Source of the DNA: Clostridia bacterium
Lineage (GTDB): Bacteria; Bacillota; Clostridia; Oscillospirales; CAG-272
Assembly: GCA_017505745.1 (NCBI GenBank)
Contig: JAFVOP010000018.1
Span: 1-53,266 of the forward strand
Direction: 5' to 3'
Length of the DNA stretch: 53,266 bases
The translations under genes were made by a program, and so were the position numbers. The notes under the pieces are model-generated. The model saw only the letters and a list, made by a program, of their open reading frames with translations. It was not told the DNA's origin and did not search any database. Positions 3,087 through 21,604 of this stretch are shown here, one piece after another. Within the stretch, counting starts at the first letter, position 1. Each line of letters starts with the position of its first letter.

Positions 3087-3115
3087 TTGACAAAATCGCT
3101 TTTTTACGCTATAAT
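3087..3115 (+). promoter_or_regulatory. Consensus sigmaA promoter of tRNA-Thr
   Basis: TTGACA-17 bp-TATAAT, preceded by an AT-rich tract. Confidence 0.85.
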
Positions 3116-3143
3116 AGACGCGTTATGTTCCAAATGTGAATAT

Positions 3144-3219
3144 GCTGGTGTAGCACAGTCGGTAGTGCAGCTGATTCGTAATCAGCAGGTCGTGTGTTCG
3201 AGTCACATCACCAGCTCCA
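3144..3219 (+). tRNA. tRNA-Thr (anticodon CGT)
   Basis: 76-nt cloverleaf: acceptor GCTGGTG/CACCAGC, anticodon arm CTGAT-TCGTA-ATCAG, GTTCGA T-loop, encoded CCA. Confidence 0.97.
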
Positions 3220-3220
3220 A

Positions 3221-3251
3221 AAAAAGCCTGTTTTCATGACAGGCTTTTTTT
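3221..3251 (+). terminator. Intrinsic terminator after tRNA-Thr
   Basis: AAAAAGCCTGT...ACAGGCTTTTTTT hairpin plus T tract. Confidence 0.85.
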
Positions 3252-3258
3252 GACAAAA

Positions 3259-3606
3259 CTTCCCCTTTGGGGAAGGATTCGTAATTTGCCCTACGGGCAA
3301 TGTTGCATCAGGTCACGTGTCGAGTCACATCACCGGCTCCAAGAAGCCTATCTTTCAAAGATAGGCTTTTTGCTTCCCCTTCGGGGAAGGATTCGTAATT
3401 TGCCCTGCGGGCAATGTTGCAGCAGGTCGTGTGTTCGAGTCACATCACCAGCTCCAAGAAGCCAAGGCAAAGTCCTTGGCTTTTTGCTTCCCCTTCGGGG
3501 AAGGATTCGTAATTTGCCCTGCGGGCAATGTTGCATCAGGTCACGTGTTCGAGTCACATCACCAGCTCCAAAAGCCTATCTTCCAAAGATAGGCTTTTTT
3601 GCTTCC
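3259..3606 (+). repeat. Three tandem ~114-bp tRNA-Thr-derived repeat units
   Basis: Units start at 3259, 3373 and 3487. Each is CTTCCCCTT(C/T)GGGGAAG + GATTCGTAAT + TTGCCCT(A/G)CGGGCAATGTTG + tRNA 3' half ending GCTCCA + an AAGCC...GGCTTTTT hairpin. Confidence 0.95.
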
Positions 3607-3719
3607 AATTCAAAATATTCTTGCAAACCGTTGAACTTCGTGCTATAATAGGCTTGATAAGACCGATCGGCGCGGTGCGTGCCGTTGGACAAAGAATGAA
3701 CATGCAAGGAGATACGAGG

Positions 3720-5096
3720 ATGAAAAACGGAAGATGGTCCGTGGTCGATTTCGGCGCGGTCAAGAATGTGGAAGCTGCACAAACCGAGGCGTTTCAAAAA
3801 GCGCTGGACGCCTGTTTTTTGGCAGGAGGCGGTGAGGTGGTTGTTCCCGAGGGCAACTACGTCATCGGCGATATCCGCATCCGCAGTAATACCACGCTGC
3901 ATCTTTTGGAGCATGCGGTACTGTTGGGCAGCACCGACCCGAAGGATTACGTACACATCAATGAGGATCCTTTGGAGCCGCTCCCCGAGGAGCAGAACAC
4001 GCTCGCGCATTGGTATTCGCCCCGCCAATGGAAGGAGATGGGCGGCGGCTTTAAAAAGCATCTGTATACCGCGGGAAGCTACTGGAACTACGGGCTGATC
4101 CGCGCGGTTTACGCCGAAAATATTGCCGTGATCGGTGAAGAGGGCTCCCGCATTGACGGACGGAACGTCTATGATCCCGAGGGCGAGGAAAAATACCGCG
4201 GACCGCATGGAATCAACATGCATTTCTGCAAAAACGTCACTCTTCGCGGCTATACGGTGGTCAATGCAAGCAACTGGGCGCACGCGATTTTCCAATCCGA
4301 GAACATCACCTTTGATCACCTCACGGTGTTGGCGGGTCATGACGCCCTGCACACCCGCGCTTGCAGCAATGTAACGATGACCAACTGCAAGCTGATCACG
4401 GGCGACGATGGCGTGGCGGGATTTGATAATCTGAACGTGGTGGTGCGCAATTGCGAGATCAGCTCGGCATGCAGCGCCTTCCGCTACGGCGGAAACAACA
4501 TTCTGGTAGAGGATTGCCAAATTTACGGCCCCTGCCCTTATCAGTTCCGCGGCTCGTTCACGCGCGAAGAAAAGATCGCGGGCGCAACCGTCTCCGAGCG
4601 CGGGCGCAACAACATGCTCAGCTTTTGGACCAACTTTGTTACCGACGATCTCCCGGTACGCAAGCCCGCGGGCAAGGTCATGCTTCGCAACTGCACCGTC
4701 AAGAATGCCGACCGCCTGCTCCACCTCAATCTGTCGGGCAACGAATCCTGGCAGCGCGGCACACCGCCTACCGACATTACCTTTGAAAACATCACCGCCG
4801 AGGGCATCAAAATGGGGCTCACGGCCTACGGAATCGAAGGCTCTCCCATGAAGCTGACGCTGAGAAACGTCAACTACACCTATCATGAGGAGGCGGCAGA
4901 GTCTCCCCTGTTCCGCGTGGCGCATTGCGACGAAATTGAACTGGAAAACGTCACGGTAAACGGGTATACCGGAGCTTCCCTGATCCGTGCTTGGTCGGAC
5001 GGCACGAAGGTTACCGCCAAAGGCTTTTCCTGCAATCTCAACGGCGGAGAAATGCTCGTTCGAGCCGACGAGGAATTCGTTTGCCGTCCGATCTGA
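3720..5096 (+). CDS. Pectin lyase-like beta-helix glycoside hydrolase (GH28-like)
   Basis: SVVDFGA...FQKALDAC...GGGEVVVPEG N-terminus, TGDDGVA motif, Asn/Cys beta-helix ladders. Promoter TTGCAA-17-TATAAT at 3621-3649. Confidence 0.8.
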   Translation: MKNGRWSVVDFGAVKNVEAAQTEAFQKALDACFLAGGGEVVVPEGNYVIGDIRIRSNTTLHLLEHAVLLGSTDPKDYVHINEDPLEPLPEEQNTLAHWYSPRQWKEMGGGFKKHLYTAGSYWNYGLIRAVYAENIAVIGEEGSRIDGRNVYDPEGEEKYRGPHGINMHFCKNVTLRGYTVVNASNWAHAIFQSENITFDHLTVLAGHDALHTRACSNVTMTNCKLITGDDGVAGFDNLNVVVRNCEISSACSAFRYGGNNILVEDCQIYGPCPYQFRGSFTREEKIAGATVSERGRNNMLSFWTNFVTDDLPVRKPAGKVMLRNCTVKNADRLLHLNLSGNESWQRGTPPTDITFENITAEGIKMGLTAYGIEGSPMKLTLRNVNYTYHEEAAESPLFRVAHCDEIELENVTVNGYTGASLIRAWSDGTKVTAKGFSCNLNGGEMLVRADEEFVCRPI

Positions 5097-5229
5097 ACCG
5101 CATTCAACGTTTGGTTGAGTGAAAAAACGCCGTTTGGTTGTACAAAAAACGGCAAAAACAACGTCTGTTCGCTTCCATTGCGGTGCCAAATATGCTATAC
5201 TGATGGCATCAACGGAAAGGAGTGATGAT

Positions 5230-5739
5230 ATGGACATCACGTTAGGAAAACGAATTGCGGCCTTGCGCCGTCAAAAAGGCATGCGACAGGAGGATCTCGC
5301 GCAACAGCTCGGGCTCACCTCACAGGCCGTGAGCAAATGGGAGAACGATCTCACCTCCCCCGACATCAGTATTCTGCCGCAGCTGGCTTCGCTCCTCGGA
5401 GTCAGCGTGGACGAGCTTCTCACGGGCACGGGCAAGCAGACCGAGCGCGAGCCCGAGGTCAAGCTGCTTCCCGCGGAAGAACGGAAGGATCTTAAGGACA
5501 TGATGCTTCGCATTGTGGTCGATTCCAAGGACGGTAACAACGTGCGCGTCAATCTTCCCATGCCCTTGGTGCAAGCGGCGATCGACATGGGAATGGAAAT
5601 GTCGCAGGTCTCGGGGAATCAATCGCTCAAAGGAATTGACCTCAAACAGATTTTGGATCTGGTACATCAGGGTGTGATTGGAAATCTGGTCGAGGTGGAA
5701 TCCTCGGACGGCGATACGGTCCGCATCTTTGTGGAGTAA
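5230..5739 (+). CDS. XRE-family HTH regulator with a C-terminal DUF2089/YvlB-like domain
   Basis: RQEDLAQQLGLTSQAVSKWEND HTH; C-terminal VRVNLP...NLVEVES...TVRIFVE; AAGGAG RBS. Confidence 0.85.
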   Translation: MDITLGKRIAALRRQKGMRQEDLAQQLGLTSQAVSKWENDLTSPDISILPQLASLLGVSVDELLTGTGKQTEREPEVKLLPAEERKDLKDMMLRIVVDSKDGNNVRVNLPMPLVQAAIDMGMEMSQVSGNQSLKGIDLKQILDLVHQGVIGNLVEVESSDGDTVRIFVE

Positions 5740-5742
5740 GTC

Positions 5743-5988
5743 ATGAAGATCGTCATTCGGGAAGAAGAGCGGAAAACACGCACCTTTCAATTGCCCTCGG
5801 CACTACTCCTGAACCGCTTTTCGGCAATGCTGATTCGCCGCGCGCTCAAAAAGAAGGGAGTAACCGTCACGCGAAAGCAAACCGCGCGATTTTTGAAGGC
5901 TCTCAAGCACTACAAATGCGAGCACAGGGATTGGAAATTGCTTGAGATCTGCGACAAAAAGAATCAACACGTAGAAATCACGCTTTGA
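5743..5988 (+). CDS. Small hypothetical protein co-transcribed with the XRE gene
   Basis: Starts 3 bp after the XRE stop, GGAG RBS; basic 81-aa protein. Confidence 0.7.
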   Translation: MKIVIREEERKTRTFQLPSALLLNRFSAMLIRRALKKKGVTVTRKQTARFLKALKHYKCEHRDWKLLEICDKKNQHVEITL

Positions 5989-6101
5989 TATGCAAAAACG
6001 GCAGAAGAAATTCTGCCGTTTTTCTTGCATTTTCCATGCAAATATGGTAAAATGTTGGAAGAGAATGAAACATCCGAGACAGATCGGAGGAAAGAGCGAT
6101 C

Positions 6102-6968
6102 ATGAATTTATGTGACATCAAAACCGTAAAGCAGATCATGGCGATGTTCCACTTCACCTTTCGCAAGGAATTCGGCCAGAACTTTTTAACCGACCGCATG
6201 GTGGTGGAGGACATTGCCGACGCGTGCTGTATGGACGAGAACAGTACCGTTTTGGAGATTGGTCCCGGAATTGGCACGTTGACCTACGAGCTGGCACTCC
6301 GTCGCCGCCGGGTGGTCTCCTTGGAGATCGACCGCGGGCTGATCCCGGTTCTCGACTTCACGCTTGGTGAATTTGACAACGTGCGCGTGATCAACGAGGA
6401 CGTAATGCAAACCGATCTGGAAGCGCTCCTGGCTCCCTATTTTGCCGAGGGTCCGGTTTCGGTGTGCGCCAATCTTCCCTACTACATCACCACGCCGATT
6501 CTCATGAAGCTGCTCGAAAGTCGGCTCCCCTTCGACTATATCACGGTCATGATCCAAGCCGAAGTAGCCGACCGCCTCGCCGCCAAGGCCGGAAGCAAGG
6601 ATTACGGCGCGATCACTGCGGTGCTTGCCTACTACGGCGAGACCGAAAAGCTCTTTACCGTCCCTGCCGACCGCTTTGTGCCCGCGCCCAAGGTCAATTC
6701 CTCGGTCATCCGCATCAAGCTTTACAAGGAACGCCCCTATCATCCGCGGGACGAGGCCCTGCTCTTCCGCACCATCAAGGCGGCGTTCGGGCAGCGTCGG
6801 AAAACGCTGGTCAACGCCCTGGGCGCCGGCTTCCCGGAGCTTTCGCGCGAGCAGATCACGGATACCGTTACTGCCTGCGGCCACGATCTCAACGTCCGCG
6901 GCGAGCGCCTTGACATTGCGCAGTTTGTCGAACTGTCGGATCGGATTTATGAGATTTTAAAGAAATAA
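6102..6968 (+). CDS. rsmA: 16S rRNA (A1518/A1519) dimethyltransferase
   Basis: GQNFL, EIGPGIG, ANLPYYITTP, FGQRRKTL motifs. Confidence 0.97.
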   Translation: MNLCDIKTVKQIMAMFHFTFRKEFGQNFLTDRMVVEDIADACCMDENSTVLEIGPGIGTLTYELALRRRRVVSLEIDRGLIPVLDFTLGEFDNVRVINEDVMQTDLEALLAPYFAEGPVSVCANLPYYITTPILMKLLESRLPFDYITVMIQAEVADRLAAKAGSKDYGAITAVLAYYGETEKLFTVPADRFVPAPKVNSSVIRIKLYKERPYHPRDEALLFRTIKAAFGQRRKTLVNALGAGFPELSREQITDTVTACGHDLNVRGERLDIAQFVELSDRIYEILKK

Positions 6969-12343: not shown

Positions 12344-14188
12344 ATGATCACTTTGTCAACAACGGCTCGCATCAACGGCATGCAATGGAATCTTTCCGAA
12401 AACCGTCTTCCCACACTTCTTGCCACGGCTCAGGACGAACACGGTACGGAAGGATACGTCTACCGAAAGCTCTCTTTGAAAAATCCGGGAAAGGAAAACA
12501 GCCCGCAGATCAGTGAGATTGTGACCCTTGGTGTAGAGCTTCCCTGTAAGGATACCGCTGTTTTTCATTCCTTGAACGGCGACAACCGCACGCAAAACAG
12601 CTTTTTGCCCTATAACAGGAGCCTGCAGGTGGGAGATTGCTTTACCTTTGAGCCTTTTGAAGGTCGCTCCTCCGACACCTCCGCATTTCCGATCTTTGAT
12701 TTGACGCTGGATGGGCATCCCTTCCTGTTTGCCGTTGGCTACACGGGACAGTGGAAGGCAGAGATCGCCCGTACCGAAACGGCGGTTACGGTGCAGATCG
12801 GTCACGGATATGCAGACTTCTACCTGTTGCCCGGAGAAGACGTGCAGCTGCCGTCGGCACTGGTGATGGAAGGACAGCCAAACGAAGATACCGCATCGCT
12901 TCGGCGTCGCTTCCGTCGGGTTCTGGCAACCGATTTCAATCCTTTGCCCGCACACATGGACTATCCGCCTCTCTCCATCCAGCAGTATGACCGTTATAAA
13001 CGGACTCCGCAATGGGATATGTGGGTTTCCTATGAGGGTCAGCTCCGCTCGGTAGAAAAGGCGGCCGCATGCAAATACATTGACACCTATTGGCTGGATG
13101 CCGCTTGGTTCCCCGGCCGCTTCCCCCACGGTGTGGGAAATTACTCCTATACCGAGGCACTTTCCAAGGGATTGAAGCCGATTGCGGATGCTGCGCACGA
13201 AAGAGACATGCATTTTATGGTATGGTTTGAGCCTGAGCGTGCACGCGCCGGCACCGAGACCTTTGAGCAGCACCCCGAATTCCTGCTCTCGGCAAAAAGC
13301 ATTGGCGAGGAGGACAGCTTCCTGTACAAGCTGGACGACCGTCTGGTGAATCTGGGGCGTGAGGATGCCTACCAATACGTCTATGAAAACGTGTCGCGCT
13401 TGCTCCGTGAGAATCACATTGACTATTACCGCCAGGACTTCAATATGCGTCCCATGCGCTATTGGGTAGAAAATGACGAGCCCGGTCGGCTGGGAATCAA
13501 TGAATTGAAGCACATCCGCAACCTGTACCGCTTGTGGGATTCCCTGAAAGAGGAATTCCCCGGACTCTTCATCGACAACTGCTCCAGCGGTGGCAGACGC
13601 CTGGACCTGGAGGCCCTGCGCCGCGCGGTTCCCATGTGGCGTAGTGACGTGACCTGTCGCCCGGTGTCCGAAACCGAGCACAGTGACGTATGGAACCAGA
13701 ATATCACACTTTCCCTGAGCGAATACCTCCCCTATCATTGCACGGGAGCATGGGTACCGATTGCAAACCAAATGCGTGCCGCTGCTACCATTGCGGTAGG
13801 TGTGGATTACGACGTGCTCAATGAAGAATTTGACTTTGCTCGCGCACAAACCGCACTCGCGGAGGTCGTTCGGCTCCGCAAGTATCACAAGGGAGATTTC
13901 TATCCCCTTTCCTCTCCAACGCTGAACGAGGACGTGTTCATTTCCTATCAGTTCGCATTGGATGGTGACGGTGTTGTTTACGTCTTCCGTCGCGTGGACT
14001 GCAAGGAAACGGTGCATACCGTCAAGCTGCAGAGCATTGACCGCGAGGCCACCTACCTTCTGCGCATCTCCGATGAAGACTATGCCGTGCGGGAGGAACA
14101 GGTACGCGGTGCGGATCTGCTTTGCGGATACTCGATAGAGCTTCCGCTTCCGCAATCCAGCGCCGTGATCGAATACCGCAAGCTTTGA
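12344..14188 (+). CDS. Alpha-galactosidase-like glycoside hydrolase (GH36)
   Basis: WLDAAWF, VWFEPE, DYYRQDFN, IDNCSSGGRRLD, WRSD motifs. Confidence 0.88.
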   Translation: MITLSTTARINGMQWNLSENRLPTLLATAQDEHGTEGYVYRKLSLKNPGKENSPQISEIVTLGVELPCKDTAVFHSLNGDNRTQNSFLPYNRSLQVGDCFTFEPFEGRSSDTSAFPIFDLTLDGHPFLFAVGYTGQWKAEIARTETAVTVQIGHGYADFYLLPGEDVQLPSALVMEGQPNEDTASLRRRFRRVLATDFNPLPAHMDYPPLSIQQYDRYKRTPQWDMWVSYEGQLRSVEKAAACKYIDTYWLDAAWFPGRFPHGVGNYSYTEALSKGLKPIADAAHERDMHFMVWFEPERARAGTETFEQHPEFLLSAKSIGEEDSFLYKLDDRLVNLGREDAYQYVYENVSRLLRENHIDYYRQDFNMRPMRYWVENDEPGRLGINELKHIRNLYRLWDSLKEEFPGLFIDNCSSGGRRLDLEALRRAVPMWRSDVTCRPVSETEHSDVWNQNITLSLSEYLPYHCTGAWVPIANQMRAAATIAVGVDYDVLNEEFDFARAQTALAEVVRLRKYHKGDFYPLSSPTLNEDVFISYQFALDGDGVVYVFRRVDCKETVHTVKLQSIDREATYLLRISDEDYAVREEQVRGADLLCGYSIELPLPQSSAVIEYRKL

Positions 14189-20410: not shown

Positions 20411-21604
20411 TCAGATCAGACGGAATCCGGCACCGGTGAGGGCCTCGCGGATCTGCTTGATGTGTTCAAAATTACGGGTTTCGAGAATGATGCGCAGATA
20501 ACAGCCGTTGACGTCCGAGCCCTCGTTGGCGCGCTCATGATGTACCGAGGTCACGTTTCCGCCCAGATCGGCAATGATCGCGGAAACGTCCTTGAGCTGA
20601 CCGGGCTTGTCAACCAGCTCGATCATCAGCTGACAGGTACGTCCCGACATGAGCAATCCGCGACGGATCACGCGGGAAAGAATGGTAACGTCGATGTTTC
20701 CGCCCGAAAGCAGACACACCACCTTTTTGCCCATGACTTCAACCTTCCCAAACATAGCCGCCGCTACTGCAGCAGCGCCCGCGCCCTCGGTAACCAACTT
20801 TTGCTGTTCCATCAGCGCAAGGATCGCTGCCGAGATCTCGTCATCACTCACGGTAACGATCCCGTCCACGTATTCCTTGCAAATTTCATACGTCAGGCTT
20901 CCCGGCTTTTTCACCGCAATACCGTCGGCAATCGTAGAAACGCTTGCCAGCTCTTCGATCTCGCCGTCGCGCACCGAATTTGCCATCGAGGGAGCCCCCT
21001 GCGCCTGTGCGCCATAGACCTTGATGTCTGGCTTGATCATTTTGAGCGTGTACGCAATGCCGGAAATCAGTCCGCCGCCGCCAATGGGTACGATCACCGC
21101 ATCCATATCGGCGATCTGCTCCATCAGCTCCAGCGCAATGGTTCCCTGCCCCGCGATCACATCCTCATCGTCAAAGGGGTGAATAAAGGTATAGCCCTTT
21201 TCGTCACGGAGCTCCAATGCCTTTTTATAGGCGTCGTCGTAAACACCCTTGACCAGGCACACCTCGGCGCCGTAGCTCTTGGTTGCCTCCACCTTGGAGA
21301 TCGGCGCGCCGTCGGGCAAGCAGATCACCGCCTTGATGCCGTTTCGCTGCGCGGAAAGAGCCACGCCCTGCGCGTGATTTCCCGCCGAGCAGGCAATGAC
21401 ACCGCGTGACTTTTCGGCATCGGACAGGCGCGACATTTTATAGTAGGAGCCGCGCACCTTGAAGGAGCCCGTGATCTGCAGATTTTCGGTTTTTAAGTAG
21501 ATCTGCGCCCCGGGACAAAGCTTGGGCGCATAGATGACATCGGTTTTGCGAACCACGTCACGAAGCGCGTAGCTTGCGCGATATACGTTATCTAAGGTCA
21601 GCAT
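20411..21604 (-). CDS. ilvA: Threonine ammonia-lyase with C-terminal ACT domain
   Basis: [39 protein letters not shown]. Confidence 0.95.

Follow-up and report, generated by a model that had tools for sequence, protein, structure and literature searches.

A tandem array of hairpin-bearing, tRNA-derived units behind tRNA-Thr(CGT) in uncultured Clostridia: a possible counterpart of the tRNA-linked repeats of Escherichia coli

Introduction

The locus described here raises the question of what a gene-less tandem array, built in part of tRNA sequence, represents when it stands directly behind an intact tRNA-Thr(CGT) gene, and whether such an array is best understood as a DNA insert, as the source of a structured RNA, as the by-product of duplication or as a mimic of tRNA. 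It was noticed in a stretch of 53,266 nucleotides from a Clostridia genome (hereafter, the window). Site-specific integration classically occurs at the 3' ends of tRNA and tmRNA genes. The attL/attR duplications produced by tRNA-integrating elements are treated in PMC9897764, and the passages of PMC5704250 that concern CIMEs describe them as decayed, gene-less remnants that keep their att sites and stack in tandem.

Repeats linked to tRNA genes are also found in E. coli, where the tRNA-linked repeats (TLRs) have been known since 1978. [quoted passage not shown] The tyrT-distal repeats (RtT) and RrA/RrB/RrF belong to this group (Egan and Landy 1978 and Rudd 1999, as cited in PMC8144298), and according to the same passages RrA/B/F are produced by read-through, are processed and bind Hfq and CsrA.

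Results

The array follows an intact tRNA-Thr(CGT) gene at 3144-3219 on the + strand (ARAGORN; 69.2 bits with the Rfam tRNA model; cloverleaf fold), which is the only tRNA that ARAGORN calls in the whole window. A sigma-70-type promoter of this gene at 3087-3115 (+), with 12/12 consensus matches and a 17-nt spacer, is by consensus match the sole + strand promoter upstream of the array, and the gene is closed by its own intrinsic terminator at 3226-3251 (+), which consists of a 6-bp stem, a 7-nt loop and seven T, as judged from sequence and fold. Three units follow on the + strand, at 3259-3372, 3373-3486 and 3487-3601, as delimited by sequence, fold and Tandem Repeats Finder (period 114, 3.0 copies, 86% matches, score 525 at 3259-3606); behind them, the first five bases of a fourth copy of the leading hairpin (3602-3606, +) mark the point at which the array gives way to unique DNA.

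The order of the parts is identical in units 1, 2 and 3. Each unit opens with a 17-nt hairpin, hp1 (3259-3275, 3373-3389 and 3487-3503), and continues with a 10-nt copy of the anticodon loop that corresponds to tRNA positions 30-39 (3276-3285, 3390-3399 and 3504-3513), a 15-nt hairpin with a 6-bp stem and a 3-nt loop, hp2 (3286-3300, 3400-3414 and 3514-3528), and a 5-nt linker (3301-3305, 3415-3419 and 3529-3533). It then resumes the tRNA at positions 40-76 (3306-3341, 3420-3456 and 3534-3570) and closes in a terminator of its own (3346-3371, the hairpin and T-run at 3461-3485, and 3574-3600). The array is in this sense a direct partial tRNA copy that runs from the anticodon loop to the 3' end, with hp2 standing between its two parts. 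The resumed part of unit 2 is identical to 3183-3219 over 37/37 nt, that of unit 3 has three changes, and that of unit 1 is decayed and 36 nt long, one T-loop base being deleted; units 1 and 3 carry 3-5 changes in their tRNA-derived parts, with the final stretch of at least 11 nt matching the tRNA. To judge from this comparison, overwriting of the tRNA part of unit 2 by the live gene (gene conversion) is visible. All four terminators have the stem base and the T-run in common and are unlike in the stem interior, that of unit 2 included. These results bear out everything that a sequence-only reading of the locus had stated of its anatomy (ARAGORN, Tandem Repeats Finder and sequence), namely a tRNA, a terminator and three ~114-bp units, an hp1 loop that differs in unit 1, and a unit 2 that copies the final 37 nt of the tRNA exactly.

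The units, which lack the acceptor 5' strand and the D arm, are not called as tRNA by ARAGORN, nor by Rfam at E ≤ 10. Rfam holds an RtT family; in the Infernal scan against Rfam at E ≤ 10, a check that the sequence-only reading had proposed, the tRNA alone is above threshold and RtT is not listed. The units are more stable than shuffled sequences (z of -5.8, -6.1 and -4.6), none of 200 shuffles being equally stable. No promoter-like site was found inside them by consensus match; the promoter of the GH28-family gene (3621-3649, +; 10/12 matches and a TG extension) lies beyond the end of the array and outside the feature. A 132-aa frame runs through the array (3250-3648), and because it matches no Pfam family and the unit lengths of relatives are not multiples of three, we rejected it as a gene.

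In two RNA runs (X15 and X18), the contigs, some of which come from other organisms, span the tRNA only (3142-3219) and have no bearing either way on the units. Two DNA runs from different studies contain a contig of 267-268 nt that links the tRNA end, unit 1 and unit 2 (3193-3457; 3 letters differ). Further DNA contigs span 3545-3750, and none of these short-read contigs spans 3468-3519, a gap that is expected because the repeat collapses. The DNA contigs of X1 and X4 break within the array, their sole difference being G>T at 3422. At this position, the contigs of two gut-metagenome DNA runs have T where the window has G; T would make unit 2 like units 1 and 3 there, and the change reflects either a strain difference or collapsed repeat copies.

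Within its own genome (a 2.34-Mb assembly of 121 contigs, 87% complete), the module carried by these units occurs at this single locus. A GTDB scan with one genome per species identified 25 loci in 22 genomes, and a metagenome scan added 5 further loci; all carriers are uncultured Clostridia or Eubacteriales assemblies. The module stands directly behind tRNA-Thr(CGT) and its terminator, the tRNA being called by ARAGORN at 21 of the 25 GTDB loci, and the other 4 begin at a contig end or have an unrelated repeat inserted. In the genus, 20/78 genomes carry it, with 1-5 copies, as do 3 of the 24 high-quality genomes, and a sample of 400 genomes from the order's other genera yielded no copy. Ten GTDB loci match no genus hit by contig and coordinate and are therefore placed in other genera (~10 genomes). 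The absence of the module is real and not just an assembly gap, because among 22 loci with an identical tRNA and readable downstream DNA 14 are without it and 8 with it. A copy-number comparison, which the sequence-only reading had called for, gives 0-5 units per locus across relatives. That reading had also raised the possibility that the units exist only here, which is at odds with the carriers in the genus and the ~10 genomes outside it. As to whether the hairpins occur next to other tRNAs, the Thr module is confined to tRNA-Thr(CGT), and it is a second module family, described below, that stands behind others. Behind the tRNA-Thr(CGT) array, three loci of other genera (L041, L051 and L062) have a deaminase-like gene, a GNAT gene and tsaD, whose product synthesises the t6A37 modification that is expected on tRNA-Thr(CGT); this neighbourhood is probably mere synteny.

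Conservation is distributed unevenly over the unit. An alignment of 33 units shows no variation in the anticodon-loop copy, in the hp2 stem, over most of the linker or in the final six bases, CCA included. The hp2 stem together with a 5-bp extension is 98% paired and shows zero variation, its loop being free to vary between 3 and 7 nt. At least 15 stem versions of hp1 occur, with the hairpin kept, and the terminators differ between species too; identical hp1 versions are found within and outside the genus. The MAFFT alignment misaligns hp1 (49.5% paired), so that a covariation count for hp1 on this alignment is void, and per-sequence folds were used for hp1. In most relatives, an outer stem encloses hp1, in which a 6-7-nt complement pairs with the anticodon-loop copy; in these per-sequence folds, 34/40 distinct sequences have four or more of the seven leading bases of this copy paired (median z of the hp1 region -3.3 versus shuffles). 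The outer stem is absent from the units in the window, where the anticodon-loop copy is unpaired, and a displayed anticodon loop is therefore not a conserved feature. The hp2 extension contains two G-U pairs, and its + strand RNA folds better in 42/43 cases, which represent one invariant sequence and not 43 independent tests; the hairpin 5' of this core has no + strand bias, the - strand being stabler in 32/43.

The tRNA-derived part decays, with changes of the T loop and T stem in many units, and follows the local tRNA at the loci where this tRNA differs (L053, L056 and L063), which answers affirmatively the question, posed in the sequence-only reading, of whether it tracks its neighbour. At seven loci, a further hairpin of ~20 nt is inserted where the variable loop meets the T stem; the idea that it is a multicopy mini-element was rejected, as it is absent outside units in 5 genomes. 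hp2 is unchanged in ~30 genomes of several genera, in which the spacers, hp1 and the terminators vary, as does the tRNA itself in three, and we conclude that hp2 is constrained and that a purely passive duplication is accordingly unlikely. No template for hp2 and the linker was found elsewhere in the genome of the window, the sole other hp2-like palindrome, in contig C47, being unrelated.

All complete units keep a + strand intrinsic terminator, and at seven loci (L039, L041, L045, L046, L056, L058 and L063) the unit terminator is that of the tRNA itself. In two of three comparisons between empty and filled sites (L031 versus L068 and L023 versus L014), the distal terminator of the filled site is the one that the empty site carries; the third comparison is opposite, L020 sharing the proximal terminator with L013. 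Arrays often end in a truncated module, with a sharp breakpoint into unrelated sequence at varied points. Two insertions near units were considered and set aside. The sequence in front of a unit at L047, tried as an integrase element, is a high-copy repeat present in 22/78 genus genomes and often located at contig ends, and a 1.15-kb insert between two units at L049 is a separate element with terminal inverted repeats, situated in a terminator loop. The L049 copy carries an XRE-type ORF, and the same kind of element is seen in unit-terminator loops at L040 and L054, L060 and L047/L077; a 45-nt end sequence related to this terminal-inverted-repeat element is a high-copy repeat in 22/78 genus genomes.

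A second tandem array is present in the genome of the window behind tRNA-Val(CAC) (G000:C19:28689-29100, locus L085). It has two ~161-bp units, each made up of a terminator, a hairpin-rich module and the final ~20 nt of the tRNA. This sister-family module occurs in 10/78 genus genomes (the genome of the window and 9 others) and sits behind tRNA-Val, tRNA-Met, an Arg-like tRNA and the 3' end of tmRNA. Its junction, in the T loop, is directly abutted by a GC-rich hairpin that has a similar A/T-rich foot, and the following ~20 nt agree with the local gene. In another genus, locus L072 (1128-1560) contains tRNA-Met, a terminator, ~190 nt and a partial tRNA-Met copy whose T loop is interrupted by a 73-nt insert; this insert ends in a hairpin that resembles hp2 and abuts the resumed tRNA end, and Rfam yielded no family for the related repeat of L072, L073 and L075. 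From the sister family and the L072-type module, it follows that the array in the window is one of a wider set of gene-less modules linked to tRNA and tmRNA genes.

Other arrangements of this general kind were observed. At L087, in the genus genome G493, a sister module has no tRNA within 330 nt upstream and adjoins an ORF of the 23S-rRNA-IVP family and a CI-like repressor ORF; this module may be the far end of a longer insert. In the genome of the window, a tRNA-Ser(TGA) gene lies at a contig end (G000:C104:11864-11951), and a second copy, from the anticodon loop to the 3' end, lies on C113 (~20,700-20,800, + strand) behind unrelated DNA, an arrangement typical of elements that have integrated at this loop. 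On C38 of the same genome, a decayed tRNA-Leu 3' end is located ~150 nt downstream of tRNA-Leu(CAG) (12503-12589, -), after a terminator and a structured spacer.

The neighbourhood of the Thr array was then compared with Pfam families. A GntR regulator and an ABC ATPase lie upstream in divergent orientation, and a GH28-type gene (3720-5096), an XRE regulator and then rsmA lie downstream. The GH28-family gene, the XRE regulator and a small ORF fill 3720-6000 and separate rsmA (6102-6968) from the array. Several relatives have rsmA immediately beside the tRNA or the array and lack the ~2.4 kb found behind the array here, for which reason this DNA looks, in the sequence comparison, as if it had been added; it has no flanking tRNA copy.

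The sequence-only reading had recognised no integrase nearby, and the family searches agree with it, as none of 42 selected ORFs across the 53-kb window matches an integrase, resolvase or transposase family. No recombinase was found among 87 ORFs within ~2 kb of 32 module loci, where the ends of contigs at ~10 loci could conceal elements, or among the 26 longest of the 41 ORFs beside sister-family loci. We also considered the array as an autonomous element and rejected this possibility, since a search for a free or autonomous copy of the module gave 0 matches in IMG/VR, and the phage and plasmid collections match the 37-nt tRNA part alone. Scans of IMG/VR, phage, plasmid, GTDB and JGI metagenome sequences yielded no element with a matching att site. 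The genome of the window contains two IS200-type elements with Y1 transposase genes (frames of 172 and 178 aa; G000:C57:13064-13420 and C68:22709-23065). Their end hairpins are GC-rich and unrelated to hp2, and the possibility that hp2 is an IS200/RAYT hairpin was rejected on this comparison.

Discussion

In this report, we describe the anatomy of a tRNA-derived array, its pattern of conservation, its distribution and a sister family, and we find no recombinase nearby. The E. coli TLRs are the closest known kind of sequence, so that the comparison with the tyrT repeats drawn in the sequence-only reading was apt. We place the array with the TLRs because position, copy number and shared 3' end match, though the sequence does not. 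Both are gene-less and follow a tRNA or rRNA gene immediately, oriented as that gene is, with one to five repeats per locus (three units here); in both, the 3' end of the repeat is that of the upstream gene, as unit 2 illustrates over 37/37 nt, and a single conserved module can stand behind different genes, as the sister family does. By our own count, the 18-19 bp of the TLRs correspond to the T loop through CCA (positions 58-76), and the junction of the sister family is at the same place. Function is largely obscure in both. The differences are equally clear. The TLRs have no sequence likeness to the array, and RtT was not among the Rfam results; the identity here comprises 37 nt and, beyond a 20-nt hairpin insert, another 10 nt; the Thr family is joined in the anticodon arm, a terminator of its own closes each unit, and the host of this family is an uncultured gut Clostridia lineage. 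Repeats of a tRNA-Pro pseudogene are present in Photobacterium. A limited literature search for tRNA-pseudogene repeats yielded no account of them, and it is too narrow to show that the module is unpublished.

Our preferred interpretation, which we hold tentatively and with rather less than even confidence, is that the array is the Clostridial counterpart of the E. coli TLRs and most likely a non-autonomous, site-specific DNA insert that has been amplified by recombination. A gene-less module of ~77 nt, comprising hp1, the 10-nt anticodon-loop copy, the invariant hp2 and the 5-nt linker, would enter the tRNA-Thr(CGT) gene via recombination in the final 37-47 nt of the gene. After such an entry, an intact 3' end and a terminator would stand before the module, and the displaced 3' end with the old terminator would lie behind it. 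Repeated entry, unequal crossing-over between the direct copies of the 3' end and gene conversion by the live tRNA could then generate 0-5 units, and the same events could produce a mosaic of a tRNA-perfect unit 2 between decayed units 1 and 3. hp2, which abuts the resumed tRNA sequence, would be recognised by an enzyme encoded elsewhere. Recombinational entry, mobility between lineages and the trans-acting enzyme are what we infer; an insert of DNA is suggested by the fixed address, the partial tRNA copy, the patchy spread, the hp1 versions shared across genera and the distal terminator in two of three comparisons.

Further sequence comparisons may be counted on the same side. The sister family at the T loops of other tRNAs and of tmRNA favours such an insert, as does the hp2-like hairpin that abuts the junction in the tRNA-Met module of another genus, and the truncated terminal modules that decay beyond sharp breakpoints speak for it too. 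The pattern of conservation, with an invariant core beside a varied hp1, belongs here as well, as do a tRNA-derived part that tracks a differing local tRNA and the standing of tRNA and tmRNA 3' ends as integration targets. The first role offered by the sequence-only reading, that of a tRNA-targeting element or stacked att sites, is thus the one favoured here; the patchy distribution, the shared hp1 versions, the distal terminator in two of three comparisons and the sister family support it, and the failure to find a recombinase tells against it. Indeed, the lack of a recombinase near the modules and of a free copy are the weak points of the interpretation. The comparison of L020 with L013 also goes against it, and the seven loci at which the unit terminator is the tRNA's own look like local duplication and not import. 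The + strand terminator in every complete unit counts against a DNA insert as well, as do the end hairpins of the IS200-type elements of this genome, which are unlike hp2, and the G-U pairs of the hp2 extension are no less compatible with an RNA than with a DNA site.

Several of these points lead to the main rival interpretation, possible though rather doubtful in our estimate and compatible with a recombinational origin, in which the array gives rise to read-through small RNAs of the TLR or RrA/B/F type. The strong transcription of the tRNA would partly pass the first terminator and the units would be released as structured RNAs of ~100 nt, with a 3' end set by the tRNA-like 3' part and guarded by the unit's own terminator, and with hp2 and its flanks as the core that binds a protein or an RNA. 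Here the retention of a + strand terminator in every complete unit, despite differing stem interiors, becomes an argument in favour, but the units are without an internal promoter and a good terminator stands before each. Likewise, the G-U pairs of the hp2 extension work in + strand RNA alone, and the invariance of hp2 across genera requires selection, but the hairpin at the 5' side has no + strand bias, the - strand being stabler in 32/43. The preservation of the hp1 hairpin in many sequence versions (median z -3.3 versus shuffles) agrees with an RNA, whereas the outer stem of most relatives is missing in the window. The hairpins occupy places at which tRNA tolerates insertions, the anticodon arm and, at 7 loci, also the border of the variable loop and T stem, but decay of the T loop and T stem in many units implies that no tRNA-type constraint operates there. 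A patchy distribution and a copy number of 0-5 are likewise unfavourable to a small RNA. A precedent exists in E. coli, where, in the passages of PMC8144298 concerned, the TLRs RrA/B/F lie between two terminators and are made by read-through.

It is improbable, in our view, that the array has neither function nor mobility and is merely a tandem duplication of the tRNA 3' end and terminator sustained by unequal crossing-over and gene conversion. Template-switch mutation in quasi-palindromes can preserve hairpin complementarity without selection. A passive origin would suit an array whose length is not a whole number of units and whose breakpoints differ between species, the seven loci with a unit terminator equal to that of the tRNA, and the gene conversion seen in unit 2, which equals the tRNA over 37 nt; the E. 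coli TLRs, too, are mostly without known function in the account given by PMC8144298. It leaves hp2 and the linker without a template elsewhere in the genome, however, and a neutral sequence would drift, whereas these two are unchanged in ~30 genomes of several genera. Still far less probable is a mimic or decoy, in which an enzyme, a tRNA-cutting toxin or a T-box leader would be confronted with the anticodon loop and CCA end of the units, or the units would serve as decoy attB sites. The invariance of the anticodon-loop copy and of the final six bases in 33 aligned units, with the loop unpaired in the window, could be so explained, but in 34/40 distinct relatives an upstream complement pairs with four or more of the seven leading bases of this copy, no acceptor 5' strand is present, and neither ARAGORN nor Rfam sees a tRNA in the units. 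Of the third role proposed in the sequence-only reading, that of processed small RNAs displaying an anticodon loop and a CCA end, the small RNA lives on in the read-through interpretation, but the display finds no support, given this pairing and the decay of the T loop; the second role of that reading, a decoy attB, gains none from the scans of IMG/VR, phage, plasmid, GTDB and JGI metagenome sequences for an element with a matching site.

The preferred interpretation, that of a non-autonomous DNA insert, also has to be set against known mobile sequences. With att duplications and CIMEs the array has in common a direct partial tRNA copy from the anticodon loop to the 3' end, tandem stacking, an original 3' end and terminator pushed to a distal position in two of three comparisons but not in the third, tRNA and tmRNA genes as targets, and DNA behind the site that varies between genomes. 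It differs from them in that just ~77 nt lie between the copies, the tRNA copy is interrupted by a hairpin, no integrase was found at the 32 loci examined or in the window, and the tRNA-derived part, often with the terminator, is of the local type. A likeness to REP/BIME sequences and to IS200/IS605 elements (Y1 HUH) is seen in the short hairpin with a conserved stem and a free loop, a few bases from the junction, and two Y1 transposase genes are present in this genome; unlike those sequences, however, the module is not dispersed but occupies one locus per genome, and hp2 does not resemble the IS200 ends of its own genome.

Taken together, an object of the TLR type is now known from distant, uncultured gut Clostridia, in the form of two families with clear junctions inside tRNA loops. 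One hairpin that is unchanged across genera provides a comparative handle on the origin of such repeats, on their recogniser and on the distinction between a DNA site and an RNA role. In practice, assemblies break at these arrays, and annotation could mistake them for tRNA fragments or integration scars. We speculate, and regard it as no better than a doubtful possibility, that tRNA-linked repeats in general are widespread gene-less elements that home to a particular tRNA loop, the anticodon loop in the Thr family and T loops in the sister family, equipped with a short copy of the target and an invariant GC-rich hairpin and dependent for their movement on an enzyme whose gene lies elsewhere, or else that they constitute a new class of structured small RNAs that borrow the promoter and the 3'-end processing signal of a tRNA. 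Either a homing element or a small-RNA class, if true, would explain the TLRs of E. coli.
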